This document shows, piece after piece, positions 4,036-37,928 of a stretch of 43,350 bases of DNA. A program made the translations under genes and the position numbers. The notes beneath the pieces are model-generated. The model made no database searches. It had not been told where the DNA came from and was given only the letters and a program-made list of their open reading frames with translations. Source of the DNA: a virus. Its lineage: Duplodnaviria > Caudoviricetes. Where the stretch lies: positions 1 through 43,350 of the IMG/VR virus record IMGVR_UViG_3300044210_000067. One strand, given 5' to 3'. Each line of letters opens with the position of its first letter. Within the stretch, counting starts at the first letter, position 1.

Positions 4036-5465
4036 TGCCCTGGGATTTGAAATACCGTCCGCGTCGTTTTTGTGAGATAGTTGGGAACACTGGGATTGTG
4101 CGCGTTCTCATGAAACGATCCTGTGATGGGACACTCGCGGATCGATCTATGATGTTTGGTGGTCCTAAGGGATGCGGTAAAACTTCGCTGTCTAGGATTG
4201 TGGCTAAAGCTATAGCCTGTATCAAGTTGAACGATGGGGAGCCGTGTTGCGAATGCGTTTCCTGTCGTGCAGTTGATGGAGGAACATCTGATAGTTTTGA
4301 AGAACTTGATGCGGCTACTCAAGGTACGATTGAGCGAATACGCGGAATCGTGCAAGATTTAGAATATGGCACCATGGACGGGCGTCCTCGTGTGCTGGTG
4401 ATTGATGAAGCTCAACGGCTTACCAAACATTCGCAGGATGCGCTGCTTCGATCAATGGAGGATCGAAGAATAACAGTGGTGCTATGTACTACTGAACCAC
4501 ATATGATCAAGGGCCCTGTCCGAGATCGTGTAACTGAATATCCTGTAGCGCCAGCGTCATCAGAGTTGATAGCACAGCGTCTTTTACAAATTTGTGAAGC
4601 TGAGCAAATATCTGTTGAACCCACTGCTGTTGATTTGATTGTGAAATTTAATCGGCGCAATCCACGTACTAGTATCACATGTCTAGAGGATGTAGCTGCG
4701 TTTGGAGCTATAACTGAGGTAGCTGTTCGTGAGGCATGTCGGTATACGAGTTTTGAGGATGTGGTGCGTGTTTTGTGTCTTATTGATCAAGATCCAGTCG
4801 GGGCTTTAACTGTGCTGGATCGTTTGTTCTCCCAAGAGAGTCCGACTTGGGTGAGAGATAATTTGGTAGCAGCCATATCCAGTGCTATGCGGGAGGCAGT
4901 AGGTGCGAAGCCAACATACCTAATACCAGCTCAGTTTTTCAGTACACGTGGGAAGAGCTGGATTTCGTGTGCTATGACGCTTAGCCGATTGGATAGACCT
5001 GATGATGCAGCTATTCAGGCCGTTCTTCTTGGTGACGTGAAATTACCTATTAATGTTCAGCCCTCTGCACTAGTTCCAATCCCTGCATCAGTTCCGATTG
5101 CATATACTCCTGCATGTGCACCTGCACCTACCCATGAACCAGTTTCGACCCATACATCAGTTTCGATCGCACTGACCCCTGCACCAGTTTCACCCCCTGC
5201 ACCAGTTCCACCCCCTGCACCAGTTCCACCCCCTGCACCAGTTCCACCCCCTGCACCAGTTCCACCGTGTGCGGTTGAACATGATGGAGTAAAATTTACT
5301 CCAGATGAAACTCTCACTTCTCTTGATCAACAGGTTGTCCGGACTTCAAAACCGGTACAGAATACTCCTATAATTAATGTGTCGGTACCGTTTGATCAAC
5401 GGTTGGTTCCGATATCAAACAAGGAGTTTGCCCGTGCCTTTGAAGAAGGGAAAGAACGATACTAA
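4035..5465 (+). CDS. dnaX: DNA polymerase III gamma/tau clamp-loader subunit
   Basis: Start moved to ATG 4035 (TAATG overlap). LKYRP..F.EIVG, Walker A GPKGCGKTS, Zn module C..PCCECVSC, ELDAA, Walker B VLVIDEAQRL, Pro/Ala-rich linker. Confidence 0.92.
   Translation: MPWDLKYRPRRFCEIVGNTGIVRVLMKRSCDGTLADRSMMFGGPKGCGKTSLSRIVAKAIACIKLNDGEPCCECVSCRAVDGGTSDSFEELDAATQGTIERIRGIVQDLEYGTMDGRPRVLVIDEAQRLTKHSQDALLRSMEDRRITVVLCTTEPHMIKGPVRDRVTEYPVAPASSELIAQRLLQICEAEQISVEPTAVDLIVKFNRRNPRTSITCLEDVAAFGAITEVAVREACRYTSFEDVVRVLCLIDQDPVGALTVLDRLFSQESPTWVRDNLVAAISSAMREAVGAKPTYLIPAQFFSTRGKSWISCAMTLSRLDRPDDAAIQAVLLGDVKLPINVQPSALVPIPASVPIAYTPACAPAPTHEPVSTHTSVSIALTPAPVSPPAPVPPPAPVPPPAPVPPPAPVPPCAVEHDGVKFTPDETLTSLDQQVVRTSKPVQNTPIINVSVPFDQRLVPISNKEFARAFEEGKERY
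5175..5264 (+). repeat. 18-bp tandem repeat (CCCCCTGCACCAGTTCCA) encoding PPAPVP in the DnaX linker
   Basis: Four perfect copies at 5193-5264 plus one degenerate copy at 5175-5192. Confidence 0.95.
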
Positions 5466-5976
5466 GTGGGTATGTGTGCAACTTTCTCCGATGGGGGAAC
5501 GAGAGAATAAACCGGAAGCAATAAGCAGAGCGGTGCAACATATTCTGGGACAGCTTGATGTATTCATCCCTGCAGTGTCGGAGAAAAGGCAGGCTGAAGA
5601 ACATACGGTTTATTTCATGGAGGGGTATGTCTTTGTGGAGTATCGGCCGAATATCCAATATTTAAAACTCCTTGAAATTCCTTTTTTTAAATCAGTCATG
5701 TGTCACCGAGGTGAGCGTTCTGGCGGGGAACCGTCATATAGCTTGCTTGATGACAAAGTTTTGGATCCCATACGCACCGGGATGCAAGAGATGAAGTGCA
5801 GAGCTTTAAAAGTGCATGATCATGTACGAGTGAATAGAGGTACATATAAAAACATGCACGGTGTAGTGGATATGATTGGTCCTGATGGTGTCCTTGTTAA
5901 TGCAAAGCTAACATCAAAACCATTGAAGATTGAGTTTCCAGCATCTTGGTTGGATCTTGAAGCAAAGGCAACATGA
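5434..5976 (+). CDS. NusG/RfaH-family transcription elongation (antitermination) factor
   Basis: NGN-like KWVCVQL...VFIP...FMEGYVFVE and KOW-like LKVHDHVRVNRGTYKNMHGVV. Start placed at GTG 5434 behind SD AAGGAG (5421-5426). Confidence 0.8.
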   Translation: MPLKKGKNDTKWVCVQLSPMGERENKPEAISRAVQHILGQLDVFIPAVSEKRQAEEHTVYFMEGYVFVEYRPNIQYLKLLEIPFFKSVMCHRGERSGGEPSYSLLDDKVLDPIRTGMQEMKCRALKVHDHVRVNRGTYKNMHGVVDMIGPDGVLVNAKLTSKPLKIEFPASWLDLEAKAT

Positions 5977-6974
5977 GAAGAATCGGGGGCCCAGAAACAG
6001 TTCGTCATGTGCTTGTGGATGGTAATAACCTGCTTCGTCGGGCTTACTATGTGTTTGTAGAAGACCGAAAGAAGCAGGGTGAGCAGCCTATCATGTCCAA
6101 GTCCGGGGCGCCACTTGGTTTATTCTATGGTGTACTCAATCTTTTGAATGGGTGGCTTTATGATCTCACTGATCCAACCCGTATATCGGTTTTCTTTGAC
6201 GGTATACCGAAACACCGTTTGGCAATAGATCCCAAATATAAGGAGCGAGATGATCGGAGTCCGCTTGATTTCGGAAGCTCTGTAAAGGTACGGGGCGTTG
6301 ATTATCCAAATCAGTATGAGCTATTGACTACTGTGTTACGCGGGCTTGGATGTGACTTATATTGGCATGCTGATGAGGAAGCTGATGATCTTATAGCTAG
6401 TTTCGTGAAGGCTCATCTAGGAGAGGTCAACATCATTCTATCATCGGATAAAGATTTTTTTCAATTGGTGGGAGACCGTGTGGTGATTTATCGTCCCGGA
6501 ATTCCTCCACCTCGTTTATTCGATGCAGAGCGTGTTGGTGATTATTATGAGAAGAAATGGAAATTTCGGCTGCGTCCAGATCAGATTCGTATGTTCAAGA
6601 CGTTGACTGGGGATCCGTCGGATAATATTTGTGGAGTGCCACGTATTCGAAAAAAGGTTGCATCGACTTTATGCGACGCGCCGAATATAGAAGCAGTTTT
6701 GTTGATGGAAATGCAGGCATTATCTACTACTGAACGATCTAACCTGTTGGCAATGCGTGAACGTTTGGAGCTCAACTGGCAACTTGTTGGGTTGAGAGAT
6801 AATATAGATCTTGAGCCTTGTTTATCGCCTGCTGATCCTGATTTTTCTGGGATACGTGAATTGTGCAATGAACTCAATATGAATCTTGACTTGCTTGCAT
6901 TTCGTGTTGGACCGTATTCGCTCTCACGAACGGCGCTACCGCTTCCTGACATACTGTCAGAACTTTGCCGGTAG
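5973..6974 (+). CDS. 5'-3' exonuclease / flap endonuclease (PolA N-terminal domain family)
   Basis: VLVDGNNLLRRAYY, VFFDG, EADDLIAS, SSDKDFFQLV, LTGDPSDNICGVP (helix-3-turn-helix). Confidence 0.92.
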   Translation: MRRIGGPETVRHVLVDGNNLLRRAYYVFVEDRKKQGEQPIMSKSGAPLGLFYGVLNLLNGWLYDLTDPTRISVFFDGIPKHRLAIDPKYKERDDRSPLDFGSSVKVRGVDYPNQYELLTTVLRGLGCDLYWHADEEADDLIASFVKAHLGEVNIILSSDKDFFQLVGDRVVIYRPGIPPPRLFDAERVGDYYEKKWKFRLRPDQIRMFKTLTGDPSDNICGVPRIRKKVASTLCDAPNIEAVLLMEMQALSTTERSNLLAMRERLELNWQLVGLRDNIDLEPCLSPADPDFSGIRELCNELNMNLDLLAFRVGPYSLSRTALPLPDILSELCR

Positions 6975-7078
6975 GGTATGAAAACCTGGCTCCAGCCAGT
7001 ATACATATACAACATATCGTTTGTCCTATACGCATACACAATATCGGACGTTGTGGTACGAACGCTGGACTGGAGCAA

Positions 7079-7861
7079 ATGTATAGTAATCACGTTGTTA
7101 TTCAAGACCCTGCCGCAATTTCAGCACGCTTTTCCACAATGGATAGGCTTGGGTATGATGGTACTGGTGATGTGGATGCTGATCTTGAGCAGATTATTGA
7201 TCATAGTCTTGCACTAGATGACGGTCCTGACCTAAAACTGAGTCGGCCGACCTTCAGTGTCATAGAGCCATACCTTATCCGCATTCCGCCGCGAGAGGCG
7301 GACTTAATTCGTCTGTATTACCGTGATCAGATGAAACAGGAACAAATCGCTCGCATGTTTGGCATAACCCAAGCAGCTGTGAGTTATCGTCTGGCTCGTG
7401 GACGTCGACGAATTCAATTTCTCTTCACCATCCCAGAACTAGATTTCGACTTGTTTGAGATGGAGCTTGGTCCGAAATTCACTGACCAGGATCGTGAAAT
7501 ACTCTGGCGTATGTATGAGACCACCTGTCAATCGAAGGTGGCAAAGCAAATGAATCTGACTCAGGGTAAAGTACGACACCGGTTCTTTAGTTCTCTTTCT
7601 CGTATCAAAGATATCATTCGAGAAGAATTGCGCGAGCGCAAGATTCACCTGGATATGGTGAAGAAGCGCTGGGCCGGAGTTGATTCGGCTGAGGTTGAAG
7701 AAGCTGAACACGATTTGCAAAATGCCATCAAAAATTCGTGTTACAGCAAATACTGGAAAGTGTTTTTTGCAATCAGTGATAAGCACTTCAATATATTACA
7801 TGAGGTATCGCTTCCACAGTTTACAGACCGTGGAGATGCGCAGATACTTGCAGTGTCATAA
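7079..7861 (+). CDS. Sigma-70 region-4-like protein with two tandem HTH domains (putative transcription regulator)
   Basis: IPPREADLIRLYYRDQMKQEQIARMFGITQAAVSYRLARG and FTDQDREILWRMYETTCQSKVAKQMNLTQGKVRHRF. Start uncertain; ATG 7079 preferred over TTG 6965. Confidence 0.72.
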   Translation: MYSNHVVIQDPAAISARFSTMDRLGYDGTGDVDADLEQIIDHSLALDDGPDLKLSRPTFSVIEPYLIRIPPREADLIRLYYRDQMKQEQIARMFGITQAAVSYRLARGRRRIQFLFTIPELDFDLFEMELGPKFTDQDREILWRMYETTCQSKVAKQMNLTQGKVRHRFFSSLSRIKDIIREELRERKIHLDMVKKRWAGVDSAEVEEAEHDLQNAIKNSCYSKYWKVFFAISDKHFNILHEVSLPQFTDRGDAQILAVS

Positions 7862-7900
7862 CTGTGTGACCGTGTCTTTGTGAGACACTAGGGGTATTTA

Positions 7901-7928
7901 GACAAGACTTTGGGTTGAAAGTCTTGTT
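7901..7928. promoter_or_regulatory. Inverted repeat (terminator or operator) overlapping the -35 of the downstream promoter
   Basis: ACAAGACTTT-gggttg-AAAGTCTTGT, a perfect 10-bp stem. Confidence 0.6.
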
Positions 7929-7943
7929 GCTACTGTGTATACT
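7915..7943 (+). promoter_or_regulatory. Sigma70-like promoter, probably giving a leaderless mRNA
   Basis: TTGAAA (7915-7920), 17-nt spacer, TATACT (7938-7943), with ATG 5 nt later and no SD. Confidence 0.65.
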
Positions 7944-7948
7944 GCAGT

Positions 7949-9796
7949 ATGAGTGTAGCAACAGAGCTGGCTAAACATGGAGTCGTAATATCCTGCGCAG
8001 TAACAGGTAGCTCAGTAATCGAAGTTTCTTGTGCATGTGGTAAACGCCAGCAACTGAAAGCGTCTTCTGTCCTCCGAACAATGAGGAGAGTCGGGAGTTA
8101 CCGGTGCTTGTCGTGTGGTATGATTTCCAAGCATGTTGATCCTGTTTATAGGGAGAGGCATCGATCAGGCATCAAGGAGTCTTGGACTGCAGAAAAACGG
8201 AAGAAGCAGTCTTGTATTTCTAGAGAGCTGTGGGCGGATCCGAAGTTCGCTGCTAAAATTACCCAAGCATCTAAAGATGCTTGGAGTGATCCGGATAAAA
8301 GAAGTGCAGCTTCACGAATGGTTCAGGGATTATGGCAGGACCCTGAGTATAGAGCTGTATTTGAGATAATCTGGGACTCGCCTGTTGAACATAAAGCTCG
8401 TTCTGAACGGGCCATGAAGATGTGGCAAGATCTTGAATATAGGCAGAGGCAGGAAACTGTTAAAATTACCCCGGAGCACAGGGCTCTACAGGCAGAGTTG
8501 GCAATTAAACGATGGCAAGATCCTAACTATCGTAATATAATCATTGAGTCTCAGAAGGAACTGTGGCTGGATCCAGCTATTCGGGAGGCAATGTCAGAGC
8601 GGGTGAAGGAACTATGGCAAGATCCTAAATATCAGAAAAAGCAATTTCATGTTGCAGTAGATCCTGGGCTTTGCAGGCAGAAATCAGAGAATGCTCGCCA
8701 TCAATGGCAGGATCCAAATGTGCGCACACTGCTTATCCAGAAGATTAAGGAGGCATGGGCTAATCCGAGTCTAAGGGAACAAGCATCGCTTACTAGTAAG
8801 CAACATTGGCAAGATCCTGAGTTTCAAAAGAAACAAGCTAAAGCTCGTGCTGCTATTCTTTTGAATGGTAAGGACTCTATTTTGGAACGGACGGCTCAAA
8901 TTGTGCTTGATGCACTTCATGTTCCATATGAGAGGCATTTTGTCATAGGATATTTTGAGTTTGATTTATTTATACCATCGCACAAATTACTGATTGAGTG
9001 TCAAGGTGAATACTGGCATTCATTACGCAAAGACAGGGATGCAGCCAAATTCACTTATATTGATACTTATTTCCCTGAGTATCGTATTATGTACTTATGG
9101 GAGCGTGATTTTATAGATCCTCGTCTCATTAAGCAGAAATTCATTCGGGAGCTTATGGGCGAGGATTCTCCACTTCATCAGGTAAATTTTTCTTTTGATG
9201 ATATTAGAATCAAGCAGCTTGATGTACATCAATGTCAGCCGAATTCATTCTACTCAGCTCCCGAAGAGTTTCTGCAGTCATTTCATTACGCCGGTTATGG
9301 ACGATCGGCTAAGGTGGTGTACGGGGCTTTTCTTGATGATATCCTGATCGGAGTTTGCAAATTTGCTTCGCCTATTCGGAACGAAGCAGCTACTTCTATG
9401 GGATTTTCCCAGGCACATGTACTGGAGCTTGATCGGTTCTGCTTACATCCGTGCTACCAAAAGAAGAACTTCGCATCTTGGTTAATATCTCGGTGCACTC
9501 GAATGGCTTTTACTAATTATTCGGGTGTTGAATCTATTTATGGGTATGCAGACGCAACGTTCGGTCATTCTGGAACGATTTATAGAGCTGCGAACTGGCG
9601 AACAGTACATACAGTTCGGCCTGATTATTACTATGTAAATCAGGACGGTTTTGTTATTCACAAGAAGACGCTTTACGATCATGCTAAGCGTAATGGGCGT
9701 TCCGAGACAGAATATGCCGCGGAGCATGGATACCTAAAGGTTCGCGGGCGCGAGAAAACGAAATTTGCTTTTGCACGTCCGAAATGTATTGTTTAG
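7949..9796 (+). CDS. Fusion protein: Zn ribbon + 17-aa W-x-D-P repeats + Vsr/DUF559-like endonuclease + Mom-like GNAT DNA-modification domain
   Basis: CACG...CLSC; about 11 W-x-D/N-P units; FEFDLFIPSHKLLIECQGEYWH; FLQSFHY...LELDRFCLHP...KNFASWLIS...YADATFGHSGTIYRAANW. Confidence 0.8.
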   Translation: MSVATELAKHGVVISCAVTGSSVIEVSCACGKRQQLKASSVLRTMRRVGSYRCLSCGMISKHVDPVYRERHRSGIKESWTAEKRKKQSCISRELWADPKFAAKITQASKDAWSDPDKRSAASRMVQGLWQDPEYRAVFEIIWDSPVEHKARSERAMKMWQDLEYRQRQETVKITPEHRALQAELAIKRWQDPNYRNIIIESQKELWLDPAIREAMSERVKELWQDPKYQKKQFHVAVDPGLCRQKSENARHQWQDPNVRTLLIQKIKEAWANPSLREQASLTSKQHWQDPEFQKKQAKARAAILLNGKDSILERTAQIVLDALHVPYERHFVIGYFEFDLFIPSHKLLIECQGEYWHSLRKDRDAAKFTYIDTYFPEYRIMYLWERDFIDPRLIKQKFIRELMGEDSPLHQVNFSFDDIRIKQLDVHQCQPNSFYSAPEEFLQSFHYAGYGRSAKVVYGAFLDDILIGVCKFASPIRNEAATSMGFSQAHVLELDRFCLHPCYQKKNFASWLISRCTRMAFTNYSGVESIYGYADATFGHSGTIYRAANWRTVHTVRPDYYYVNQDGFVIHKKTLYDHAKRNGRSETEYAAEHGYLKVRGREKTKFAFARPKCIV

Positions 9797-9799
9797 TTC

Positions 9800-10354
9800 A
9801 TGGAATCTCGAAAACGTTTGGCTGAGCTACTTACTGAATTATCGTTCATGCGTAAGCGAGTTATTCTTGCAAGCGGAAAGGAAAGTGATTTTTTCATCGA
9901 TTGCAAGCAAACAGTGCTAACTGCTGAAGGTCATTATTTAGTCGGAGAGCTCATGTATGAGGCTTTATCCAAGCTTCCGATTATGGCACAAGCTGTTGCT
10001 GGTGTGCAGCTTGGTGGATGCCCGTTGGCGAGCGCAGTCTCTCTTATTAGTTATCAGAAGGGGCATCCGCTACCGGCTTTCTACGTCCGCAAGGAGCAGA
10101 AGGACCACGGTTCGCAGAAGCTTGTGGAAGGCGATAAATCTTTGGTGCCCGGTATGAACGTTGTTCTTCTTGAGGATGTAATCACAACGGGTGGCTCGTC
10201 CCTCAAGTCTGCCGCCAATCTTACTATGGCCGGGGTGCATGTGGTGGGTATTGTGGCGTTGGTGGACCGTCTCGAGGGAGGTGCCGAGGCGATTAGGCAG
10301 GCCGAAATACCACTGATCAGTCTATATACACGTAATGACTTTATCCCTAGATAA
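9800..10354 (+). CDS. pyrE: Orotate phosphoribosyltransferase
   Basis: ILASGKESDFFIDCK, YVRKEQKDHG, PRPP-binding VVLLEDVITTGGS, LVDRLEGG. Confidence 0.95.
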   Translation: MESRKRLAELLTELSFMRKRVILASGKESDFFIDCKQTVLTAEGHYLVGELMYEALSKLPIMAQAVAGVQLGGCPLASAVSLISYQKGHPLPAFYVRKEQKDHGSQKLVEGDKSLVPGMNVVLLEDVITTGGSSLKSAANLTMAGVHVVGIVALVDRLEGGAEAIRQAEIPLISLYTRNDFIPR

Positions 10355-10592
10355 ACGTGCGCTGATAAAGCAGGCCCTCATGGAACACGAGGGCTGCAGT
10401 AAATTGGCAGCAGCCATGGTCAATCCGGTCCGGCGTCGGATTGACTATCAGTCGGTTGCTCGATCCATGTTTACAGTCATCAACATCACCATCCCATGTC
10501 CGGTGTGTGGTAAACATGTAGAGGATCTAATCCAGCATTGTAACGAGATTGGTGATGTAGTACACGCCGTAGTACTTGTCCATGAGACCTAG
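10335..10592 (+). CDS. Small protein: major-capsid N-terminus homolog fused to a putative Zn finger
   Basis: Residues 7-51 align without gaps to the capsid protein at 35413 (19/45 identical), followed by CPVC...HC...H. Confidence 0.75.
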   Translation: MTLSLDKRALIKQALMEHEGCSKLAAAMVNPVRRRIDYQSVARSMFTVINITIPCPVCGKHVEDLIQHCNEIGDVVHAVVLVHET

Positions 10593-10622: not shown

Positions 10623-11516
10623 ATGATTGTTGCTGGTGGCAATTTCCGTTTCAGTACTCCTTCGGTTGGCGGAGACTGGTTTTGGAGCGTTGATGCTAGT
10701 AATATCATCAACGATGGTCAATTGATTCAGGTTAAGGATATACAGACCCCATTCGGTCCGTTGTCCGTTTCCAATATACCTATTCCGAGTTCAGTTATAC
10801 TGGCGATGGCTGACTCGCTTACGCAATTTCAGCAGCAACTAGCACCAGTACTTCGGCTGCTTACGCCAGCAACCTACAGCTTCACCGTTACAGAAAGTGC
10901 TGCGGCCATGGATGCAGCAGCAATGCAATTCCAGAACGTTGGAGCGTTTGGGTCTTTCATGTCTGTTTCAGCAACGCCAGACGCGTCTTGGCTTACTGCA
11001 AGTCCGCCTAGTGTTGGTGGACTTGGTAAAAATCAGACTGGGCAATCCGAGGCTCGTATTTTACCTGCAAGTATGCTCGCGTCATCATCTCCGTACACTG
11101 GGCATATTACGCTGCAGGATAGTGCCAATCCGCCAAATTCGGTTGCCATCACTTTCAATGTCATAGTCTTACCGAGACCGACTATTGGTCTATCGATACC
11201 GAGTATTGGTCTCACCTATCATTTACTGACTTCGGTTGGTACATCTGCGATAGAAGTAATAACTAATGTCGGGCCGGCATTATCTTCTATGAGCTTCAGT
11301 CTTGCAAAGGTACAGAACCAGAGCCAATGGCTCAGTATAGTTCCGATTTCTGGCGGCCCTCTTGGTTCTGGTAACTCGGTGAGCGTTCTGTTCTCTATCG
11401 TGGGTATACATGCTCCGACTATTACTGGCAATTATTCCGAGACCATTCGTTTGACAGCACCTAGTGCAACGAATTCGCCTATCGATATACCAGTTACTTT
11501 GAGCGTCGTCCCCTGA
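10623..11516 (+). CDS. Putative virion protein with two Ig-like (BACON-type) domains
   Basis: Ser/Thr/Pro-rich beta-strand sequence with a duplicated pattern: NVG...SWLTASP...YTGHITL and NVG...QWLSIVP...YSETIRL. Confidence 0.6.
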   Translation: MIVAGGNFRFSTPSVGGDWFWSVDASNIINDGQLIQVKDIQTPFGPLSVSNIPIPSSVILAMADSLTQFQQQLAPVLRLLTPATYSFTVTESAAAMDAAAMQFQNVGAFGSFMSVSATPDASWLTASPPSVGGLGKNQTGQSEARILPASMLASSSPYTGHITLQDSANPPNSVAITFNVIVLPRPTIGLSIPSIGLTYHLLTSVGTSAIEVITNVGPALSSMSFSLAKVQNQSQWLSIVPISGGPLGSGNSVSVLFSIVGIHAPTITGNYSETIRLTAPSATNSPIDIPVTLSVVP

Positions 11517-17009: not shown

Positions 17010-20000
17010 ATGTCCGGGAAGGAGCCGGTTTACAAGAGTCAGCTTACTGGAACTGTTGATTCGTTCTTAGCGGGAAAGCGTCGCAAGCAAACCAAAGAGG
17101 CCGGCAAAGGCGATGGTGATGTTGATTTTCTCAACATTCTTGACTTCATCGACCGTTTCAAGCTGTTGCCGAATGGTTTGCATCCGGTGCAGAGGTTCAT
17201 AGTTAAGTTATACTATGGGATACCGTTAGATAGTACTGACCCTATTATTTCGGTCACAGACCGTTTTGGTAGCGAAGTACTGCATCTGTTTACTGAGGTT
17301 GAATACCTCAGGTATCTATATGATCATGGGCGATGCAACATTCGTGAGCAAGATGATAAGGTTCGGCATGAACTTATTCTAGTGCTTGGACGCAGAAGCG
17401 GTAAGAGTACTTTGGCAGCTGTTTTCTCTGCATATGAGATTTACAAGTTGCTCTGCCGAGGATACCCTCAAGCATATTACGGCATGCCGGCAGGATCCGA
17501 GATTCGCTTGCTTTGCGTGGCGAATGATAAAGAGCAAGCGGAAATTGTTTATGGGGATGTGCAAGCATACGCTGAGGCTATTGACTACTTCAAGAGCTCC
17601 ATCGCACATAGTACACGTCAGTACATGCGGTTCCGTACTGAGAGTGATCGTAAAAAGTTTGGAGCCACTGCTAAAGGAACTGTTGTCACATCTTTTCGTA
17701 GTTCCATCGCAAAAGGTATTCGCGGCCGTGGTGTTATTTGTGCAGTTTTGGATGAAATCGCTTTCTTCGTAGATAACGGCAAATGCCAAAATATCTCCGG
17801 AAAGGTACTTACTTCGCGTGGTTTGATCTCCCTTGATACTATTCTTACTATGGCAAGGGCAGATAGATCTCGCCATGGGTGGACCAACATTGATCCAATA
17901 GAAATTATCCAAGCTGGTGGACGTAGAGCCTACACTACTAGAGTTTATTATGGCGGGCTTCAGAAGACGCGATTGATAGTCACAGCTAGCCGTTATCGTA
18001 TTGAGCCTACTCCGGATCATCGGGTGAAGGTGATGTCAGATGACGGAGATATTGTTTGGAAATACGCTCGAGATATAAAGCCAGGTGACTATATTGGAAT
18101 TGCTCGTGGCACTTGCTTTTGGCCAGAGCTTCGATATGACTGTAGGGACCTTATTCCATTACATGGTCGATTCCAATGTCATATCCCAGCAGTTGTTGAT
18201 GAAAGACTGGGGGAGTTTCTTGGTATTCTGGTTGGGGATGGGACATGGACCTCCGGCAATTGCAAGAGTCACATACAAGTAACGGGTGGGTGTGAACAAT
18301 TCCTGCCATTTGTCCAGTCGCATTTTGCTCGGTATTTTAATCGATTCGGAACATCCCGAAAGTCTAAACACGTACGGAATACCTGCGAGGTTTCTCCATG
18401 GTGTGTTACCAAGACATCTGGTTCATTTCGGATGTTCTTGGATAAGCTTGGGTACCGCCTGGATGTAACGAAAACTACCAAGTCGGTTCCTTGGGTAATC
18501 TTTGCTAGTCCAAAGTCTGTAGTTGCTGCATTTTTGCGCGGTTTGTTCGAAACAGACGGAGGAGTAGAGCACGGCGGAACCACTGTTTCCTTTGCAACCG
18601 CTAGTCAGAGCTTGGCTGAAGAGGTTCAGGCTCTACTATTGAATTTTGGGATTACAGCAAGTATACATGAGAAATATAATAGAAAATATGCCAGAAATTA
18701 TTTTTATCTATGTTTGACTGGGGCTGAATCTCGTCGTATCTTCTGGCAAGAAATCGGTTTTATTACGCGTCGAAAGAATTTAGCCCTATCTCGGGGTCTT
18801 TCTCGAGGGAGAGACGCATCTAATATTGTGCCAACACAAGTTAATAGGGTTCGGCGCATTATTACGTCAATTCCTCGATCACGTAAGAATGAAAAAGGAG
18901 ACAACTTACGATCTTGCGCTTCACGGATAATGTCAAGCTCATTGCGATTGCGGGCGCCTGGTTATCCATCGTATAGCTCATTGCGTCGATTCGTGACCCT
19001 GATGCAAACAAATGGAATTCATGGGTCTGATGTTGATGCGTTGAATGAAATCTGTAGGCTTGATTATTATTGGGATTTGGTAGTCTCGGTTGATAAAACT
19101 GAATGTGAGACTGCTGATCTGTGGGTACCAGATGGGAATGAATATGTAGCCCAGGGGATGGTAAATCATAATTCGTCTGCCGAGAAGATCTACCGCGCCA
19201 TGAACCCTTCTTTGGCGCAGTTCTCGCCCAAAGATCCAAATAATCGTCGCATACCGACAGGACCATCAGATGGCCGAATGATACTGATCTCATCTCCAGA
19301 TGCACGGGATGGTTTTTTCTACCGTCAATATCAGATGGCTATGTCCAAAGATCGTGGATCAATGGACATGTTGGTGATTCAAGCGCCAACCTGGGAGGTG
19401 AATCCGACGTTGGATCAGAGTTACTATGAGAAGGAATACTACAAGGATCCCCGTGTATTTATGACTGAACACGGGTCGGAATTTTCTGATCGTGTGAGTG
19501 GTTGGATTGAGGACGCTAAGGATCTAATGGATTGTATTGATTCAGAGGCACGTCCGAAGGAACGTGGTAACACAAGGGAGGTACATTTTGCTGGTTTAGA
19601 CTTTGGAATTTCGAATGATGGGACTGCCATAGCTATCACGCGGATTAATGAAGCAAAGATCGATCTTGCATATCATGAAATTTGGTATCCGAAAAGGTCG
19701 TGGCGAGAAGTAAATCCACATTTATCGTCTTCAGTTTCGGATTATGTGTCGCAGCTCGAGCATGTAACGAGGCTAGATATCGACGAAATCGCCAATTGGC
19801 TTCTGGCACTCTCGAAGAGGTTTTATATTCATAAGGGTATATTTGATCAATGGGCCGGTCCATTGTTTGAACAGGTGTTACATAAACGTGGATTGCGACA
19901 GTTTGAAATGCGTAATTTTCACGTGGTAGACACTTCAAATATGTGGCAAACATTTAAGATGTTCATGCTCCATCGTCAGTTCCGCATGTATGACTGGCCA

Positions 20001-20333
20001 CTCCCAACGGGATCTGAGGCTGGAATGCGGCATTCTCCTCTAGTGGATGAACTGCTCGAACTGCAGGCAACAAGTGCCGGCAAGAACTTAATCACGGTTG
20101 AAGCTCCGAAGATTGCTGGGAAGCATGATGATCAATCTGATGCTCTAGCTCGGTCGGTCATGCTGGCGTCTGAATATATTCGACAGAATCCGGGGGTTCT
20201 CACGGTTGGGGGTCGTTTGCATGAGTTGCCCCGTTTTGATAATAAACTCGGTTATCGGCATTATCATCGGGTGAGGACAAGGATGCACGGGGTAATCAAA
20301 GAGCGCATGGTGCCACGGATTGCCCGATTCTGA
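17010..20333 (+). CDS. Terminase large subunit with one intein
   Basis: Walker A LGRRSGKS, VANDKEQA, Walker B CAVLDEIAFF, coupling motif ILISSP, nuclease FAGLDFG and HDDQSDA. Confidence 0.93.
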   Translation: MSGKEPVYKSQLTGTVDSFLAGKRRKQTKEAGKGDGDVDFLNILDFIDRFKLLPNGLHPVQRFIVKLYYGIPLDSTDPIISVTDRFGSEVLHLFTEVEYLRYLYDHGRCNIREQDDKVRHELILVLGRRSGKSTLAAVFSAYEIYKLLCRGYPQAYYGMPAGSEIRLLCVANDKEQAEIVYGDVQAYAEAIDYFKSSIAHSTRQYMRFRTESDRKKFGATAKGTVVTSFRSSIAKGIRGRGVICAVLDEIAFFVDNGKCQNISGKVLTSRGLISLDTILTMARADRSRHGWTNIDPIEIIQAGGRRAYTTRVYYGGLQKTRLIVTASRYRIEPTPDHRVKVMSDDGDIVWKYARDIKPGDYIGIARGTCFWPELRYDCRDLIPLHGRFQCHIPAVVDERLGEFLGILVGDGTWTSGNCKSHIQVTGGCEQFLPFVQSHFARYFNRFGTSRKSKHVRNTCEVSPWCVTKTSGSFRMFLDKLGYRLDVTKTTKSVPWVIFASPKSVVAAFLRGLFETDGGVEHGGTTVSFATASQSLAEEVQALLLNFGITASIHEKYNRKYARNYFYLCLTGAESRRIFWQEIGFITRRKNLALSRGLSRGRDASNIVPTQVNRVRRIITSIPRSRKNEKGDNLRSCASRIMSSSLRLRAPGYPSYSSLRRFVTLMQTNGIHGSDVDALNEICRLDYYWDLVVSVDKTECETADLWVPDGNEYVAQGMVNHNSSAEKIYRAMNPSLAQFSPKDPNNRRIPTGPSDGRMILISSPDARDGFFYRQYQMAMSKDRGSMDMLVIQAPTWEVNPTLDQSYYEKEYYKDPRVFMTEHGSEFSDRVSGWIEDAKDLMDCIDSEARPKERGNTREVHFAGLDFGISNDGTAIAITRINEAKIDLAYHEIWYPKRSWREVNPHLSSSVSDYVSQLEHVTRLDIDEIANWLLALSKRFYIHKGIFDQWAGPLFEQVLHKRGLRQFEMRNFHVVDTSNMWQTFKMFMLHRQFRMYDWPLPTGSEAGMRHSPLVDELLELQATSAGKNLITVEAPKIAGKHDDQSDALARSVMLASEYIRQNPGVLTVGGRLHELPRFDNKLGYRHYHRVRTRMHGVIKERMVPRIARF
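17784..19172 (+). mobile_element. Intein with LAGLIDADG homing endonuclease in the terminase (463 aa)
   Basis: Starts CQNISG, block B PTPDHRV, LGILVGDG and LRGLFETDG, ends MVNHN before Ser(+1). Confidence 0.92.
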
Positions 20334-20987: not shown

Positions 20988-23900
20988 ATGCCTAGCAACA
21001 AAAAGGTTGGAGTGCGTCCGGATCCCCGTGTAAATATGCCGGTGGTGAAGGTCGATGATCAGGTACATGCTCGCCCTAAACTGACTAAGCTTGAGAAACT
21101 GGCTCGTAAAGAGGCATCCCAGTCCATACGTATTGCGGCTATCAGCGGGGACTTCGGAAACGCAGGAGATCTATCTATCAGGACTGCAGATGCTAATTTT
21201 TACAGTCCTCAGTTATCAACAGATTTCTTGGAGTTGCCGCAATCCGAACGTGAAAAGCGTGAGCTTTTTCGGTTTTGGTATAACTGTTTTCCACCAAGTG
21301 CACCGGTAACTATAGCAAATGGAACTACTATCCCGATTGAGGAGGTCCGGGTAGGGGATCGTGTTCCGAATGGAATGGGTGAGCCTACACAGGTGACTCG
21401 GCTGTTTCGGAATCACATTGATGATGTGATAATTCAAATGCGAGTACGAGGGGTGCAGAGTGATGTCCAAGCTACTGGAAACCATCCGTTTTATGTGTTA
21501 CGGGCCAGCGCAGTGGACTGCCAACATTCACAGGCAACAGGGGCTTGTAAGAATGGAAATAATGATATTTGCCGTCGATTGAAATGTGACGGGACAGACT
21601 TTGGAACTCCAGAGTTTATATATGCTAAGGACCTGAAGGTGGGGGATTATATTATATCCCCGTGTCTAGCTGATATAAGGGATTGTGGACTAAAACGTGA
21701 AGAAATTCGACTGCTTGGATATTACGCTGCAGAAGGATCAATAGCATATAGGGCTGCAGGTGTGGTTCGGGGAGTTGAGTTTTCTCTATCTTTAGATGAA
21801 GCTACAACCATAGCTGTAGAAATATCTGAGCTCTTTGAGCGGCTGTTCGGGAAGAAGGCCCGTATTTATTTGGACAATAATCGGCACACTACTAAGGTGG
21901 TTTGTGACGGTATTGAATTTGCTAGGTTCTGTGAGGAGTGGGTCGGCCGCGGTTCACACAAGAAACAGCTTCGTGAGGATCTGGTTAAGTCACATCCTGA
22001 GCAAGTCTTGGAATTTCTTGGAGCCTACTGGAATGGAGACGGCTGCTTCACTGATAATTCGTATACGGCCGACACGATGAGCAGAAATCTTGCTGCTCAG
22101 GTTTTCCGGATGCTGCGGGGTCTTGGTATACCGGCTTATCATTCACAATATGATAGACCATTGCGGATTATTAATGAGAGAAAGTATCCACCCGGGATAG
22201 TTCATTATATTTCTTTTCCAGGCCGATACTATGATACATTTTCCAAGTATGCCAATTGGGTTAATGGAGAATACTCAGCTTCTTCAACTCGTGTTTATAT
22301 TATTCAATCAAAGTATGGGTTTCTGCATCGTATTGAATCGATAGAGGCTGTGCCATACCAAGGATATGTGTATAACATTGAAGTTGACGGGGAGGGAGAC
22401 CGTAAGAGCTACATAGCTTATAACCTGGCTACACATAATACACATCCAATTGTTGGCGCTGCGATTGACTTCCACTGCTTCCCACCCGGAGCCCCGGTGA
22501 TGATGAGGGATGGGACGGCAAGTCCAATAGAGCTGCTGCAGATTGGAGACGAAGTTATAAACGGGATGGGTGAATCAACAAAAGTCCGACAGACATTCAA
22601 GCATCATGTGCAAGGTCCTGTAACTCGCTTGAAAGTCCGTGGCATACAAGAAGATATTGTTTGTACTGAGAATCACCCATTTCTTGTATACCGTGCGAAG
22701 CAGATTGACTGCAAGTTTTCGGCGAATGGTATGGGGGCTTGCAAGGTTGGTACGAAGTTCCTCTGCAGGCAAAAGCAATGTGCTGGAAATGTTTTTGGGC
22801 GGCCACAATTTGTGTTTGCACAGGATTTGGAAGAAGGAGACTACATCTGTTCACCTGCTATGGTGACTGTTAGATCCACTTTCAGCAGAGCCCAGTTGCG
22901 CTTGCTTGGATATTATGCTGCTGAGGGGTCACTGTGTCGGACCAAATACGGGAAGTTTGATAGGGTAGTATTTACTCTTGGTGCTAGTGAATTTAATACT
23001 ATTGCCAATGAGGTGATGGAAGCCTTTCATTCTGAATATGACCATCTTGCACACAAACGTATGCGGATGGATTCCAATGCATGCGATGTTAAATGTTACA
23101 AGAAGGACTTTGCCGAGTTCTGCGAGAGGCACGTTGGTAGTGGATCCCATAACAAGAGGCTGAGTCTTGACCTGATGGATTCCCCTCGAGAGGATATACT
23201 GGAATTTTTGGGTGCGTATTGGAATGGTGACGGTAGTCTTACTAAGAACGGGTTTGTCGCCACAACTGTTTCGGTACAACTAGCCCATCAAATTTATGCT
23301 CTAGCTTTGAAGGTTGGGTACACCCCGACGCTACATACAATTAAGCCTAAAAGTCGGGCCTCAGGTTTCAGATCCAGAGGAAATACATATCGAATTATTA
23401 TTCCGTACCGCGTCCATTCAGAGTTCTTAATGTATGCCAATTTTGTACAAAATGGATATGATGCTAAGACAACGCGTGAATATCATATTCAAGTTGGTTC
23501 CTATGCACTAAGGCGGATTGAAAAGATTGATACCATTCAGTATGATGGTTTGGTATATAACATTGAAGTTGATGGGGAGGGGGACCGTAAGAGTTATGTT
23601 GCTTACGGATTAGCGACTCATAATACTGATGTGCCAATGTCGAAGATCCGATTATCTTTACCTAAGGGTAAAGATGTTAAGCGGAACAGACAGATATTAC
23701 ACTTCTACACACAAATGTGTAATAGGATTCGACTTTTTCAGGCGTTATATGACGCTACACATGAGTATTGGCTTCATGGCAATTGTATACCTGAAAAGTC
23801 CAGAGTTCGTATGCCAGGAGGATATAAAAACGCCGGTATGATTGAGGTTGGTGATTTGGTTCTGACCCATCATGGTAGATGGAGACCTGTCACGACCGTG

Positions 23901-26900
23901 TTCACCCGGGAAGTTAATGAACTTCTTTCTTTCTCCTTTTGGAAGACATATCGCCAATTACAGACAACCGATGATCATCCTGTGGAGGTCCTGTGTGGGA
24001 ATGAATTTAAGTTCCTACCAGCGAAGGATATAACTTCTGGTGATTATGTTCGTATAACATGGCCTAGTGAAAATCACGACGTCGACATTGTTGATTTTCG
24101 GTCTGATGTGGTGAAGGATACAGGTAATGGATACACAGTGATGCGATCGTATTCGCACACTCGAAATCCAGACGCCGCTCGGGCAAGGGCAGGCATGTTG
24201 GCTTGGCTATCAACTATCACAAAGCCAACAGTCAGAACGCGCGGTGACCTGGCACGTGAATTTCATGTATCAGAGTCAACACTGAATAATGTAATTACTA
24301 AGTTGCGCTCTGAACTACCGGTATTTCATCGACGAGTCGGTAGGCATGAAGGATCAAGGGTAGAATGGCTCCCGATAGGCCCTATGGAGGACGATCCTAG
24401 TCGTTATGAATGGACCCAGCCCTATACATACGAATCACCTTTATCGTTGCCGGTGTGTGATAATTTCTTGTATGTCGTTGGGTACTGGCTCGGTGATGGA
24501 ACGCTAGGTAGAGACTCCAACCGAGATACCTGGGGGCGTGGTTTATGGCAAATTGTCTTTTCATCTAAGTCTGGTGGATCCCGGGAGCGGATATATAATT
24601 ATCTGTTGACAGCATTCGGCTCCAAATGTGTTCGATCGTGGAACTCCAACGGGATGGATCATGTTAGAATTATATCCAGTCCTGCCTTCATTGAATGGTG
24701 GTCCAGCACGTTCGGTGATTCTTCTTTTGGCAAAAATCCAAAGAAGGTTCCAGAGTGGATATTGAACTTGCCGCCGGATCGGCTGCGCCACGTCGTGGCC
24801 GGCCTAATTGACTCTGACGGATGTGTAGGGCAGACACGCAGGGGTCATGTCACTTTTGCCGTGTGCTCACAGGCTTTGGCTGACTTTTTGCGCGACGCAG
24901 CCATGAAACTGGGTGCCGTGGTGAACGAAAACACACGTTCCACTCGAAAAGTACGCCTTCCAAACGGGAAGCCTGCTAAAAGCAGGCCCCAATATATCAT
25001 ACAAGCGCTGGATAGAGAATCATGTGAAAGAATGACCTCTGTCGGCCTTAAACGACCTCTTCCTGATCAAACGTATTCACGTCCGACACATTTTATTCGT
25101 ATTGATGATTCCGTTGCACTTCAAGTGCGCGATCGGGTAAGGATCCCTGGATGCCGTGTAGTCAACTTTGAGGTGGATGAAGATCACACTTATCAGGTGG
25201 ATGGATTTAGCACACACAATTGTTTCCTATTTGCCGAAGATCACGACATGACTGATGACATTCCTAGTGAATTGTTATCTGATGAAGTTGAAGAAGAGGT
25301 AAACGAGACTGATTATGCTGGTCGTGTCCAGACCAGAAAAGAGAGTAAGAAGCAGCAAAAACCGGATAGCGAACGTGCCAAGAACATCCGGGAGTATGTA
25401 GCACAAAATTATCGCGGGTGGGAGCGATTGCAGATTTTACCGCCTGAACAAGTTAAGCTCGAAGTTTTTCAGTATACGAATCGGGTTCGGATGGAGCTTA
25501 TTCCATCCGAAAAGGACCGACAGGTTGTAATGAAGGCGGTGGAACAGGGTGATCCTGAAGCAGCACGCATTGCCGATGATATTCCAGAGCAGATCCGACG
25601 GGACCTGCTTGACGGTCAGCCGATTCCGTTGAACACATCACCATTTGATGATTTCTTGTGTTCGTCATTCTGTTATCATCTATCACACAAGAAATCAGCT
25701 TATGACGACCGAGGAATTTCATTACTTGAACGGTGTCACCTCCCTGGGACCGAGGTTACGGCATTGAGGGATGGGCAAGTACTTCAGGTTCCGATCGAGG
25801 AGCTTGATCCAGAGACTGACAAAGTACTGGGAGGCTCAGGGAAGTGGAGAGGGTTCCAGTGGGGAACCAGGCCATATAATGGATCAGTAGTTGAAATCGA
25901 GTTCGAAAAACTATCAAAATCGATTGTTTCTACTCCAGATCACAAAATACACATTCTCCGCGACGGAATTGAATTGGAGACGACAGCGGACAAAGTCATG
26001 GTCAAGGACTATATCAGGGCAGCTGTCGTGAAGGCTCCCCACATCATCGATAAGGTCAGTCTCCACGATTTCTTTTTGAAAGAGAAATGGACCTATAAGC
26101 ACAGAGACACGAAAGAACAGCGCCTAGTGTCTATTACTCCGGAGAGGATTAGGGACGGGCTAATTCTCCACCACTCATGGATTGACGAGAACCCGCAGAG
26201 GGCCGGCCGTGCTAGTCTTTTGAAACGGGTGTCCGAATGGATATCTGGATTAAAGGAAGAGACTGTTTTATTGTCGGAAGACTTTCGCAGTATATTCGGC
26301 GGGATGGGGGACTCTGTTTACAGGGCTCTCATGGCGGATCTCGCGGTGGCCGGCTACGAGGCGCCGATCGTGACCGTGACCGGGTCGAGATTCAAGAGTA
26401 AAGGGCGGCTTTTCAGACCAGCGGTTGTTGACGCTTCTAGTCTTTATGAAAAGACCTCGACCCAAGAATGTCCATCTGAGCTGAAATTGACCAGGGAGCT
26501 CGGGTACTTGATTGGATACTTCCTGGGAGACGGATGTATTTCGAGCAGAAAATCTGCCATTACATATGGATTACTTGATATATGTTATGATGCAGAAACA
26601 CCTAATAGTTCTAAATCAATTGATCTGATCAAGGAATACTGTTCACAGTTTAAAGTTCGCTCTGTTCATCGAACTAACAGAGTAGACAGTATACAATTTC
26701 ATGATGACTGGTTCAATCGTTGGCTTGGAAGAAATTTCGGACACAATAAGCAGGACAAACATCTTCCGGAGTGGATTGATTCCACTCCTGAGGAATTTAG
26801 GTTTGGGCTTTTGAATGGACTGTTCGATTCGGACGGATGGGTCAGTTTATATAAAAATCAACCTGGATACGTTGACGCTACGATTTGCATGACAACCAAA

Positions 26901-35412: not shown

Positions 35413-36303
35413 ATGAACCCCTTCGGTATACAGGTAGTTGATAACGCCCTTAAGGAAAGACTGGTGGACCAGCACATTGGGAGCGGCGCAGGTCGTAAGC
35501 GCATTGCCGCCTCGATGGTCCAACCTCTACGTGATCGTAGAGATTACTCTTCCGTTGGTCGGAAGACATTTCTTGTTGAGCAGATACCGGACGGTGCCAT
35601 GCCGGTGTACGACAAGGACCCGGAAGTGGTGGCGTATGTCATCGGTGAAGAGGGCGAAAGCATTACTGCAATTGCCAAGCCTCGCCGTGTGATTTTCCCA
35701 CTGTTCGAGATTGCAGCTCTACCCAAAGCTCCACTGACTCAGGTCAAGGAACGCCGGTACGACCTCCTGAAGCGTATGCAGGATCTTGGCAAGGCTCAGA
35801 TCCAGGCTGCAGAAGATGATCGAGTCTTCTCGATCATGGATGCAGTTGCTGTTAACGGGTTCGATTCACTTCCGGGTGGAACGAATCCAGATATTCCGGT
35901 TGTTGCTCCTATATCGCCGGATATCCTTGCAGATGCATATGCTGAAATAGAAGGTCACGACCTTCGTGTTGCTCGTGTGTTCCTGAATGCACGTGATTAT
36001 GCGGATATCCGGAAGTTTGGACGCGATGTCTTGGACATTGAATCGCAGGCAACTCTGTGGAAGACGGGCATGATGGCAACTGGGTGGAATGCCCAGTTTA
36101 TTGTCAGCCGTCTTGTTCCTGCCGGCGTGGTTTATATTTGCTGCGAACCGGCGCAATTTGGACGAATCCCAGTTCGTACCGAATTGACTGTATTGTCTGC
36201 AGACAATTCTGAGGACAGGACGATTGGATTCTCGATGTTTGAGAATTTAGGCATCGGGGCTTACAACCCACGCGGTCTAGTTCGTCTTATCGTCCAGCGG
36301 TAA
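35413..36303 (+). CDS. Major capsid protein (HK97 fold, compact/encapsulin-like size)
   Basis: Strong SD AAGGGAGGT. Backbone-helix-like DLLKRMQDLGKAQIQAAEDDRVF, P/A-domain-like VFLNARDYADIR, C-terminal GIGAYNPRGLVRL. Followed by a terminator. Confidence 0.82.
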   Translation: MNPFGIQVVDNALKERLVDQHIGSGAGRKRIAASMVQPLRDRRDYSSVGRKTFLVEQIPDGAMPVYDKDPEVVAYVIGEEGESITAIAKPRRVIFPLFEIAALPKAPLTQVKERRYDLLKRMQDLGKAQIQAAEDDRVFSIMDAVAVNGFDSLPGGTNPDIPVVAPISPDILADAYAEIEGHDLRVARVFLNARDYADIRKFGRDVLDIESQATLWKTGMMATGWNAQFIVSRLVPAGVVYICCEPAQFGRIPVRTELTVLSADNSEDRTIGFSMFENLGIGAYNPRGLVRLIVQR

Positions 36304-36326: not shown

Positions 36327-36371
36327 CGTCTAAGCCCTGATACCATATGGTGTCGGGGCTTAGATGTATTT
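36327..36371 (+). terminator. Probable rho-independent terminator after the capsid gene
   Basis: CGTCTAAGCCCTGATACC-ATAT-GGTGTCGGGGCTTAGATG, a long stem with G-U pairs, followed by TATTT. Confidence 0.7.
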
Positions 36372-36401: not shown

Positions 36402-37928
36402 ATGGGCTGCAAAAAATGCTCATCTGCCAATGATTCTTTTTTTGGATACTGCAATGCATGTTCGCAGCAGGCCAGCTATTTGGAGAAATATCCCGGCTTA
36501 CAGTCTTTTCTTTCTCTTGAGTCGATATCCCTTCTTGCAGGAAAGGTTTCAGCATCTGACAATTTGATTTTAGAGTGCAAGTGCCAGGTATGTCAAAGGC
36601 AATCTCAAGTGAAGCTGATCAGCGTGCTGAAGCAGTATAGGCGCCATACCAATGCTAAGCGCCCCATCTTCTATCGTTGTCTGCGCTGTTCTAAGGCCGG
36701 AGTAACGCATCTGACTGTTGACACTGTTCAGAGTGTGATCGATATAGAATCAACGATGATGCAGTTTGGAGGCCTTCCGAAGAATGTGAAGCACGGCAAA
36801 GTAGTAGCCATTTGTGAAGATTGTCATCAGTCCCAGACAGTTAAACTTAGCAGTCTCTTGCATCAAGCAAGAAGGCACCGTATGGCTGGAAGAACGTGCA
36901 TCTATAAGTGCTTCCGATGCGGTATAACACGTGAGGATGCTGTTGTTAGGTCTGCCGTTGCTAGAGCCAAGCAGCTGTCTAATGGGTTTCGATCATGTCT
37001 GGAGACAGCAATGACGAATCGACTTACGACCCTAGGTATTAGTTTTTGGTCGCAGCATGCCGTCGGCCTCTACACATGGGATTTCTTCCTGCCAGATTTC
37101 GGAATTCTCATTGACGTTGATGGGGAATATTGGCATTCAAGGCATGATAGAATTTGTAAGGACACGGCCAAGATGACCTATACACAGCGGTACTTTCCGG
37201 AATATCGTACCGTTCGAATTGAAGAGAAAAATTTTCTGAATCCGGCCATTGTGGATCGTCTATTACTAGCTCTACTAGGTCAGCTTCCGGCTCCAGTCAA
37301 GATTGACTTTGATTTTGCCAACGTGTCAGTGGATAAAGTTGGTGGTAAGGGGGATCCTGTAGATGTATATCGTTCTTTCCTTGATTCTTATCATTATGCC
37401 CAATGCGGCCGGCCCGGATTTGTGGTCTATGGTGCGGTCTTAGCTAGTGAATTAATTGCAGTGTGCAAATTCAACTCTGTCACCAGGCAGGGTACGCCTG
37501 CGGCTCGTGGCCTCAAATGTCACGAGGTTTTAGAGCTCGATCGCTTTTGTATTCACCCGTCTTATCAGAAAAAGAATTTTGCATCATGGTTCCTCTCTCG
37601 GTGCATATCTCGCGTTTTTTCTGACTATTCTGGTATAGCAGAACTTGTTAGCTTTGCCGACGAGACCTTCGGCCATTCAGGGACGATTTATGCCGCGTCG
37701 AACTGGGTATACATCGGGCATACTAGACCAAGTTATCACTATATGGATCCCTTAGGAGTAGCAATTAATAAGAAGAGGGTCTATGATATCGCATCCAAGC
37801 TCAAAATGACTGAGCGGGAATATGCTGATAAGCATGAATTGGCTCAGTTTGCTGAGAAGCCTAAGGCCAAGTATGTTTTTCCTCGTAGGAACCGGAGAAT
37901 AACTTCATCTATAACCAGACTCCAATGA
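36402..37928 (+). CDS. Fusion protein: multiple Zn ribbons + Vsr/DUF559-like endonuclease + Mom-like GNAT domain (paralog of 7949-9796)
   Basis: Three CxxC...CxxC modules; YTWDFFLPDFGILIDVDGEYWH; FLDSYHY...LELDRFCIHPSYQKKNFASWFLSRC...SFADETFGHSGTIYAASNW. Confidence 0.8.
   Translation: MGCKKCSSANDSFFGYCNACSQQASYLEKYPGLQSFLSLESISLLAGKVSASDNLILECKCQVCQRQSQVKLISVLKQYRRHTNAKRPIFYRCLRCSKAGVTHLTVDTVQSVIDIESTMMQFGGLPKNVKHGKVVAICEDCHQSQTVKLSSLLHQARRHRMAGRTCIYKCFRCGITREDAVVRSAVARAKQLSNGFRSCLETAMTNRLTTLGISFWSQHAVGLYTWDFFLPDFGILIDVDGEYWHSRHDRICKDTAKMTYTQRYFPEYRTVRIEEKNFLNPAIVDRLLLALLGQLPAPVKIDFDFANVSVDKVGGKGDPVDVYRSFLDSYHYAQCGRPGFVVYGAVLASELIAVCKFNSVTRQGTPAARGLKCHEVLELDRFCIHPSYQKKNFASWFLSRCISRVFSDYSGIAELVSFADETFGHSGTIYAASNWVYIGHTRPSYHYMDPLGVAINKKRVYDIASKLKMTEREYADKHELAQFAEKPKAKYVFPRRNRRITSSITRLQ

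Follow-up and report, generated by a model that had tools for sequence, protein, structure and literature searches.

The window analysed here is one contig of 43,350 nt (43 kb) from a large phage genome. Replication and transcription genes extend up to position 7861 and are followed by virion genes, with the major capsid gene at 35413-36303. The closest comparisons of the capsid protein are with an uncultured phage record of 485 kb (73% identity) and with Bacillus phage G (34%), and the contigs of relatives reach up to 436 kb. The carrier is an uncultured jumbo phage. The one sequencing run listed as containing DNA of the stretch is a sediment metagenome, and no RNA run is listed; neither a variant nor a joint was seen in the contigs of this run, which do not cover 7863-7895. 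The gene of interest encodes a nuclease fused to a Mom-family domain and lies between the replication/transcription and virion modules, at a spot whose content varies among relatives. The features are as follows.

7079..7861, + strand: conserved upstream gene with sigma-70 region 4, the anchor of the insertion site (profile searches, relatives' loci)
7902..7927, no strand: perfect 10-bp inverted repeat over the -35 hexamer (sequence)
7915..7943, + strand: candidate sigma-70-like promoter match, TTGAAA-17-TATACT, 10 of 12 (motif scan)
7949..9796, + strand: nuclease-Mom fusion gene, copy 1, 615 aa (ORF call, Pfam, PHROG)
8030..8116, + strand: putative Zn ribbon, C28-x-C30...C53-x2-C56 (sequence)
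8174..8836, + strand: W-x-D-P helical repeats, residues about 76-296, putatively DNA-binding (sequence, model)
8864..9157, + strand: Vsr-like / EDxHD nuclease, residues 306-403 (PDB sequence match, fold match, alignment)
9260..9772, + strand: Mom-family GNAT domain, residues 438-608 (Pfam, PHROG, PDB sequence, fold)
9800..10354, + strand: pyrE-like orotate phosphoribosyltransferase, a private neighbour (TIGR00336 above cut-off)
10623..11516, + strand: conserved downstream 297-aa gene, directly after the sigma-like gene in empty alleles
36402..37928, + strand: copy 2 of the fusion gene, 508 aa, located behind the major capsid gene (41% identity to copy 1, residues 295-610)

An earlier note on this DNA had credited the fusion gene with its own promoter. 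The TTGAAA-17-TATACT match exists and is plausible and well placed, although promoter-like sites as good occur in the scanned region about as often as expected by chance (5 found versus 4.9 expected) and no common promoter position was seen upstream of 78 homologous ORFs. The match ends 5 nt 5' of the ATG and would therefore yield a leaderless message.

All the motifs named in that note, with a Cys-rich N-terminus, a nuclease and a C-terminal domain, are indeed present in the single ORF at 7949-9796, and the structure model of the 615-aa protein has a mean pLDDT of 91 and a pTM of 0.55. The start codon at 7949 is supported because the N-terminal Cys motif is conserved among homologues, CxxC/CxSC being the consensus of 58 of them at the N-terminus. 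The Cys pattern of the proposed Zn ribbon was thus found and conserved, and zinc binding is its putative function. Residues 79-287 contain 12 Trp, nine of them in W-x-[DN]-P; this region was modelled as a string of short helices and varies between homologues. It matches PHROG 22215, a family of unknown function (E 6e-14), and its best Atlas match, DUF7487 (0.89), is a lead only. The repeats that the note had described as of DNA-binding type are therefore present, with DNA binding as a presumed role. Pfam GerD/STI1 and NCBIfam GerD matches on the repeats fell below the cut-off and were rejected.

A PD-(D/E)xK Vsr/DUF559-like nuclease had been called in the ORF, and the call holds for residues 306-403. 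There is no Pfam match over these residues, and the segment matches the homing endonuclease I-Bth0305I (PDB 3R3P) both by sequence (E 8e-4) and by fold (E 1.8e-4, target TM 0.78). The catalytic set E313, D339, E350, Q352, H357 and D364, together with the fold, places the domain in the EDxHD group; its counterpart in I-Bth0305I, as given in PMC3239194, is E170, D196, an extra acidic residue, N208, H213 and D222. I-Bth0305I differs in being intron-encoded, in having NUMOD motifs and in lacking a Mom domain. The EDxHD Vsr-like homing family is described in the same source as including Hef-type proteins. In an alignment of 121 proteins (the query, copy 2 and 119 matches), D339/E350/H357/D364 are intact in 119, and dN/dS indicates that the nuclease domain is under purifying selection. 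When residues 300-615 served as the query, 148 proteins were returned, and the Mom domain was found in all 120 matches listed. When the nuclease alone was used, 35 of 38 proteins had the Mom domain and three ended early: one stops inside the nuclease, one, labelled partial, has half a Mom domain, and one stops at the linker. No clear nuclease-only relative was seen among these 38 proteins.

The C-terminal domain had been likened to the Mom protein of phage Mu, and all the comparisons agree with this. It matches Pfam PF25680 (E 5.8e-23, 82 bits against a curated cut-off of 27.1) and PHROG 1384 (E 3.5e-29), and Mu Mom (PDB 8BV8) is the top match both among PDB sequences (E 1.6e-4) and in a Foldseek search with the model (E 1.8e-10), so that profile and fold together make the domain a member of the Mom-family GNATs. 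Using a Mu Mom reference sequence taken from the Mu genome, we found that H446, Y447, R496, S510, D535 and Y545 correspond to Mu H58, Y59, R111, S124, D149 and Y159; of the eight positions that matter in Mu Mom, six are thus retained. Neither of the other two is kept, Mu R151 being replaced by T537 and Mu W181 by V569. All six retained residues occur in 115 of the 121 homologues, the remainder being five with Thr for Ser and one cut short, and the position of R151 holds Thr in 116 of 121 and Arg in none (0/121). R477 and H540 are further residues invariant in the clade. Two helices modelled at 572-593 lie at the place aligned with the HTH-like insertion of Mu Mom (175-209) and differ from it in sequence; this insertion is required for Mu Mom activity.

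Mu Mom uses Gly-tRNA as donor, and its R151A variant is reported to have no detectable activity (PMC13219725). Because R151 and W181 are missing, we do not class the fusion protein as a functional equivalent of Mu Mom, and with R151 changed the chemistry of this clade may differ from that of Mu. The likeness lies in the GNAT fold, the six residue equivalents and, in the model, a possible helical insertion at the matching place; Mu Mom differs in that it stands alone and marks the genome broadly, and identity to it is about 24%. The broad modification by Mu Mom is described as protecting DNA from restriction enzymes (PMC7261163). The Mom domain of the fusion is under purifying selection: dN/dS is 0.025-0.078 in the four of seven pairs with an estimable dS, which exceeds 1.4 in two of these, and the other three pairs are saturated. 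A search for stand-alone Mom proteins (<338 aa) gave seven matches, one of them a distant stand-alone Mom (37%) and six that look like fragments of fusions; five of these six contain nuclease residues and the sixth, a 188-aa piece, allows no judgement.

A possible overlap with Hef-like homing nucleases had also been suggested, and both domains do align with annotated Hef-like endonucleases. Residues 301-615 matched 310 records of cultured phages, 126 of them over at least 80% of the query, at 22-26% identity, and many of the 310 are annotated as Hef-like homing endonucleases. The family includes PHROG 3339/559, proteins of Campylobacter phages CP8/CPX, Bacillus phage AR9 (g188), Dickeya phage LIMEstone1 (F-LimX) and Escherichia phage G8. 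Its members resemble the window protein in having a variable N-terminus, a Vsr-like nuclease and a Mom-like C-terminus, and in being free-standing and present in several copies; in Campylobacter phages, Hef-like genes occupy 8-11 places. Six cultured Hef-like proteins all match the nuclease and Mom profiles of the clade, with a Mom match (E 6e-13 to 1e-3) that is weak for some of them. Their Mom residues are more altered, with Y59 replaced by L/I in 6/6, D149 by N in 3/6 and S124 by G in 1/6. In contrast, the window clade retains HY and D where theirs are often HL and N, has Thr for R151, and carries W-x-D-P repeats where they have other N-termini. A long, fully supported branch separates the metagenomic clade from the six. 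Homology over the nuclease and C-terminal domain is therefore clear, if distant (22-26%). The window protein belongs to a separate clade within the Hef-type nuclease-Mom fusions and is well preserved; the proteins compared were annotated Hef-like endonucleases of phages other than U5.

The Hef-like gene of phage G8 (PHROG 3339, E 5e-152) lies between nrdA and nrdB, a position that we take to be that of U5 hef as well. In the original study, Hef reportedly cut both carrier and non-carrier DNA in vitro. Pseudomonas phage MIJ3 is presumably a relative of PA5oct. Five Hef-like places in MIJ3 parallel the five enzymes noted in PA5oct by PMC7824862, whose section 3.4.7 predicted in 2021 that Mom-nuclease fusions of jumbo phages shield the carrier's own DNA and cleave that of the host or of rivals. 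The Mom-REase fusions of that section share with the present protein the domain pairing, the genome class and the predicted protect-self/attack-other role. They are framed there as restriction-modification, and searches of the paper's text for 'homing' and 'Vsr' were negative. According to PMC2988022, U5 Hef cleaves nrdB, which adjoins its own locus, and PMC3296691 lists Hef-like genes as free-standing. According to a review passage that cites the Hef paper (PMC10448857), certain homing nucleases may cleave the sequence they themselves occupy, at a low rate. In the main text of PMC13219725, a word search for fusions, Vsr, Hef and homing was negative, and a literature search with subscription journals mostly outside it found no published test of the fused Mom domain. 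The architecture is therefore already known, as that of Hef-like homing endonucleases, and cut-and-protect has already been predicted in print.

We compared the insertion sites of the gene among relatives. Loci for the sigma site were fetched with the upstream gene alone to avoid bias, which gave 53 loci, 47 of them distinct. Thirty-six distinct loci had at least 50% identity, and four of these were dropped for too little downstream DNA, leaving 32. Another 11 distinct loci, of lower identity, did not enter the count; the gene was present in 0/11. Nine of the 32 carry the full nuclease-Mom gene, two carry N-terminal remnants and 21 are without it, four of the latter being cleanly empty with 36-91 bp to the next core gene. 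The capsid site, where the predicted second copy was confirmed at 36402-37928, was examined in 79 loci, of which 33 were dropped (9 for low identity, 4 cut, 20 too short) and 46 left; these represent 39 distinct alleles, nine with the nuclease-Mom gene and 30 without. The gene is therefore not syntenic core content, and its description as a cassette inserted at a module boundary agrees with the empty alleles in relatives and the varying content of the spot. Decayed or split copies were also seen, as N-terminal remnants and a capsid-site version in two ORFs (L105:5846-6298, L114:2693-2887, L156:2455-3957).

A quick tree of 85 nuclease-Mom proteins clustered the copies by insertion site and not by genome. 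Ten sigma-site copies fall within a clade of 12 members, and nine capsid-site copies make up a clade of ten together with a split capsid-site gene; the two copies of the window belong to different site-specific clades. Four nuclease-Mom loci, with diverged copies, were found on one 257-kb contig. The gene is thus optional and intergenic, with empty alleles and site-tied lineages, as is expected of a Hef-type element. On the tree of the neighbouring gene, its presence is scattered as if at random: it requires 9 changes, against a mean of 8.6-8.7 with shuffled labels, and at least 7 are forced by strong branches. Among 10 carriers, a 100/100 split of the element tree is rejected by two upstream genes (p-AU 0.032) and two other groupings are not (p 0.08), all groups having been named after the element tree was seen. 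Element-to-neighbour distance ratios are about tenfold apart, with 0.30 versus 0.06 for L104/L106 and 0.61 versus 1.33 for the window and L091. The AU tests and the distances favour horizontal spread without proving it.

No base or residue marking the carriers was seen in the upstream genes (family-wise p >0.3), and therefore sequence-based immunity was not seen in a scan of low power that covered 10 carriers per site, diverged alleles and upstream genes only. The capsid gene at the site of copy 2 likewise contained no carrier marker. One candidate target, picked post hoc at the 3' end of the sigma-like gene (GG at codon 248 in 0/10 carriers versus 12/21 non-carriers), failed correction, with a family-wise p of 0.77 for bases and 0.35 for residues; GC content is a further confounder.

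Other occupants of the two sites were scored with profiles built from proteins present there, so that only these families are visible, and some of the alleles counted are close relatives. Of the 32 loci at the sigma site, 9 have a Vsr-Mom gene, 2 have HNH/AP2 nuclease genes together with a separate methyltransferase-like gene, in 1 an HNH/AP2 pair stands alone, and 20 have none. At the capsid site (39 alleles), fusions comprise 9 Vsr-Mom, 6 HNH-like with methyltransferase-like and 2 LAGLIDADG with methyltransferase-like; the remainder are 3 HNH-like alone, 1 methyltransferase-like alone and 18 with none. Over both sites, 28 of 32 nuclease-bearing alleles have a modifier domain, either Mom or methyltransferase-like, and 4 are without. 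Methyltransferase-like calls were based on DPFxGxGGR and SPP[YF] motifs with weak Pfam/PHROG matches, and HNH-like calls on a motif recognised by eye.

Directly behind the major capsid gene, in the place of copy 2, eight loci join an HNH-like or LAGLIDADG nuclease to one methyltransferase-like family (L139:5032-6654, L158:4944-6608, L167:2761-4395, L172:4917-6560, L211:4947-6638, L136:5171-7486, L191:5093-7408, L200:5014-6975). The tandem HNH/AP2 genes of the sigma site (L100:5837-8199, L108:5816-8160, L084:5830-7475) are followed in two loci by a separate methyltransferase-like gene of the same family as in the capsid-site fusions. In two further loci (L150:4896-6161, L196:4989-6164) the N-terminus and methyltransferase-like domain are kept and the HNH-like nuclease is gone.

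The gene likely encodes a homing endonuclease of the free-standing Hef type. Mobility by homing has good support and fits the data better than a restriction-modification system, and cut-and-protect is plausible, with indirect support. According to the reading that we prefer, the nuclease would cut the DNA of a rival phage near the insertion site, repair of the cut would copy the gene into the rival genome, and the Mom domain would modify adenines in the carrier's own target so that the cut is blocked there. The N-terminal Cys motif and the repeats may bind DNA. Site-specific cutting and homing are expected from Hef and I-Bth0305I, glycyl transfer from a charged tRNA to adenine is suggested by Mu Mom, and the resulting mark is presumed to block the fused nuclease. 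We give this whole reading a probability of roughly 0.5. Its homing-endonuclease part is highly probable, and, given such an endonuclease, self-protection is slightly favoured. The direct basis is the conserved active-site residues, the patchy presence, the empty sites, the remnants, the site-tied lineages and the purifying selection on the Mom domain. That three nuclease folds occur at these spots in combination with one or other of two modifier types is the strongest indirect sign of a modifier in the service of the nuclease. Against self-protection, R151, essential in Mu Mom, and W181 are missing, and 4/32 nuclease-bearing alleles have no modifier. Moreover, a diffusible modifier would also mark a co-infecting rival genome, and protection would then require timing or a bias in cis. 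Against mobility, patchiness alone would also fit an old insertion followed by many losses.

Perhaps the gene is a Hef-type homing endonuclease whose Mom-like domain is no shield against the fused nuclease and instead provides specificity, by binding DNA or flipping bases, or is cargo that counters restriction and, by benefiting the phage, helps the selfish gene to persist. The two missing Mu residues would be consistent with this, as would the further decay of Mom residues in cultured Hef proteins, the nuclease-only genes at the same sites and the low-rate self-cutting mentioned in PMC10448857. However, conservation of H, Y, R, S, D and Y in 115/121 proteins seems to go beyond the needs of DNA binding alone, and unrelated nucleases have repeatedly been paired with modifiers at the same sites; we consider this alternative unlikely, though a serious one. 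The proposal in PMC7824862 would make the fusion a weapon of the whole phage, in which broad momylation shields the genome, the nuclease breaks down DNA of the host or of superinfecting phages at numerous short sites and homing is incidental. The intact and coupled domains speak for this, and Mu Mom offers a precedent for broad protective modification. A short, frequent target site is hard to square with lineages that keep to their insertion sites, however, and the presence of several diverged copies in one genome, the remnants, the other homing-type nucleases that replace the gene at these sites, absence from the sigma site in most close relatives and the cutting of nrdB by U5 Hef beside its own locus all speak against such a weapon, which we regard as quite improbable. 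An old immobile accessory gene, inherited vertically at the sigma site with many losses, would fit the site-specific clades, the remnants and the two of three AU tests that did not reject congruence, but is very improbable in view of the roughly tenfold spread of distance ratios, the one rejecting test and the purifying selection on the nuclease.

If, as we prefer, the Mom domain protects the target, it would give free-standing homing endonucleases a third route of self-avoidance, the other two being disruption of the site and change of its sequence. A site-directed, tRNA-fed DNA-marking enzyme would then be part of a very common phage gene family. Since both fusion and idea are published, the locus is no new system; what it contributes is comparative support and a test case in good preservation. 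Added here are the purifying selection on the Mom domain, the finding of no clear nuclease-only relative, and the unrelated nuclease and methyltransferase modules at the same two sites. We tentatively consider a broader reading, somewhat short of an even chance, in which Hef-type genes would act as gene drives and distinguish self and rival through a chemical mark, not through sequence. Mom would use charged tRNA to hypermodify the long target of the nuclease, with its chemistry or specificity altered in this clade (T for R151, R477, H540), and at these phage hot spots Mom and methyltransferase modules could replace each other in combination with three families of nuclease.

Some minor observations concern the surroundings of the two copies. 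The window encodes a NusG-like protein, a 5'-3' exonuclease and the conserved sigma-like protein at 5377-7861; the last has two stretches like sigma-70 region 4 and no match to region 2. The pyrE-like gene at 9800-10354 begins 3 nt past the nuclease-Mom gene, was unmatched in all 83 related loci and lies outside the element in relatives; it is possibly recent cargo. The genome in the window is rich in homing elements, as large genes at 17010-20333 and 20988-28052 contain LAGLIDADG inteins, one in the first and several in the second, of 2354 aa; from motif and position, these genes are likely terminase and portal. A small ORF at 10335-10592 has a stretch that resembles, by eye, the N-terminal motif of the capsid protein encoded at 35413-36303, and short capsid-like ORFs lie close to the capsid gene in three related loci (L030, L141, L180). 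The gap between the capsid gene and copy 2 contains an 18-bp near-perfect palindrome at 36329-36364.
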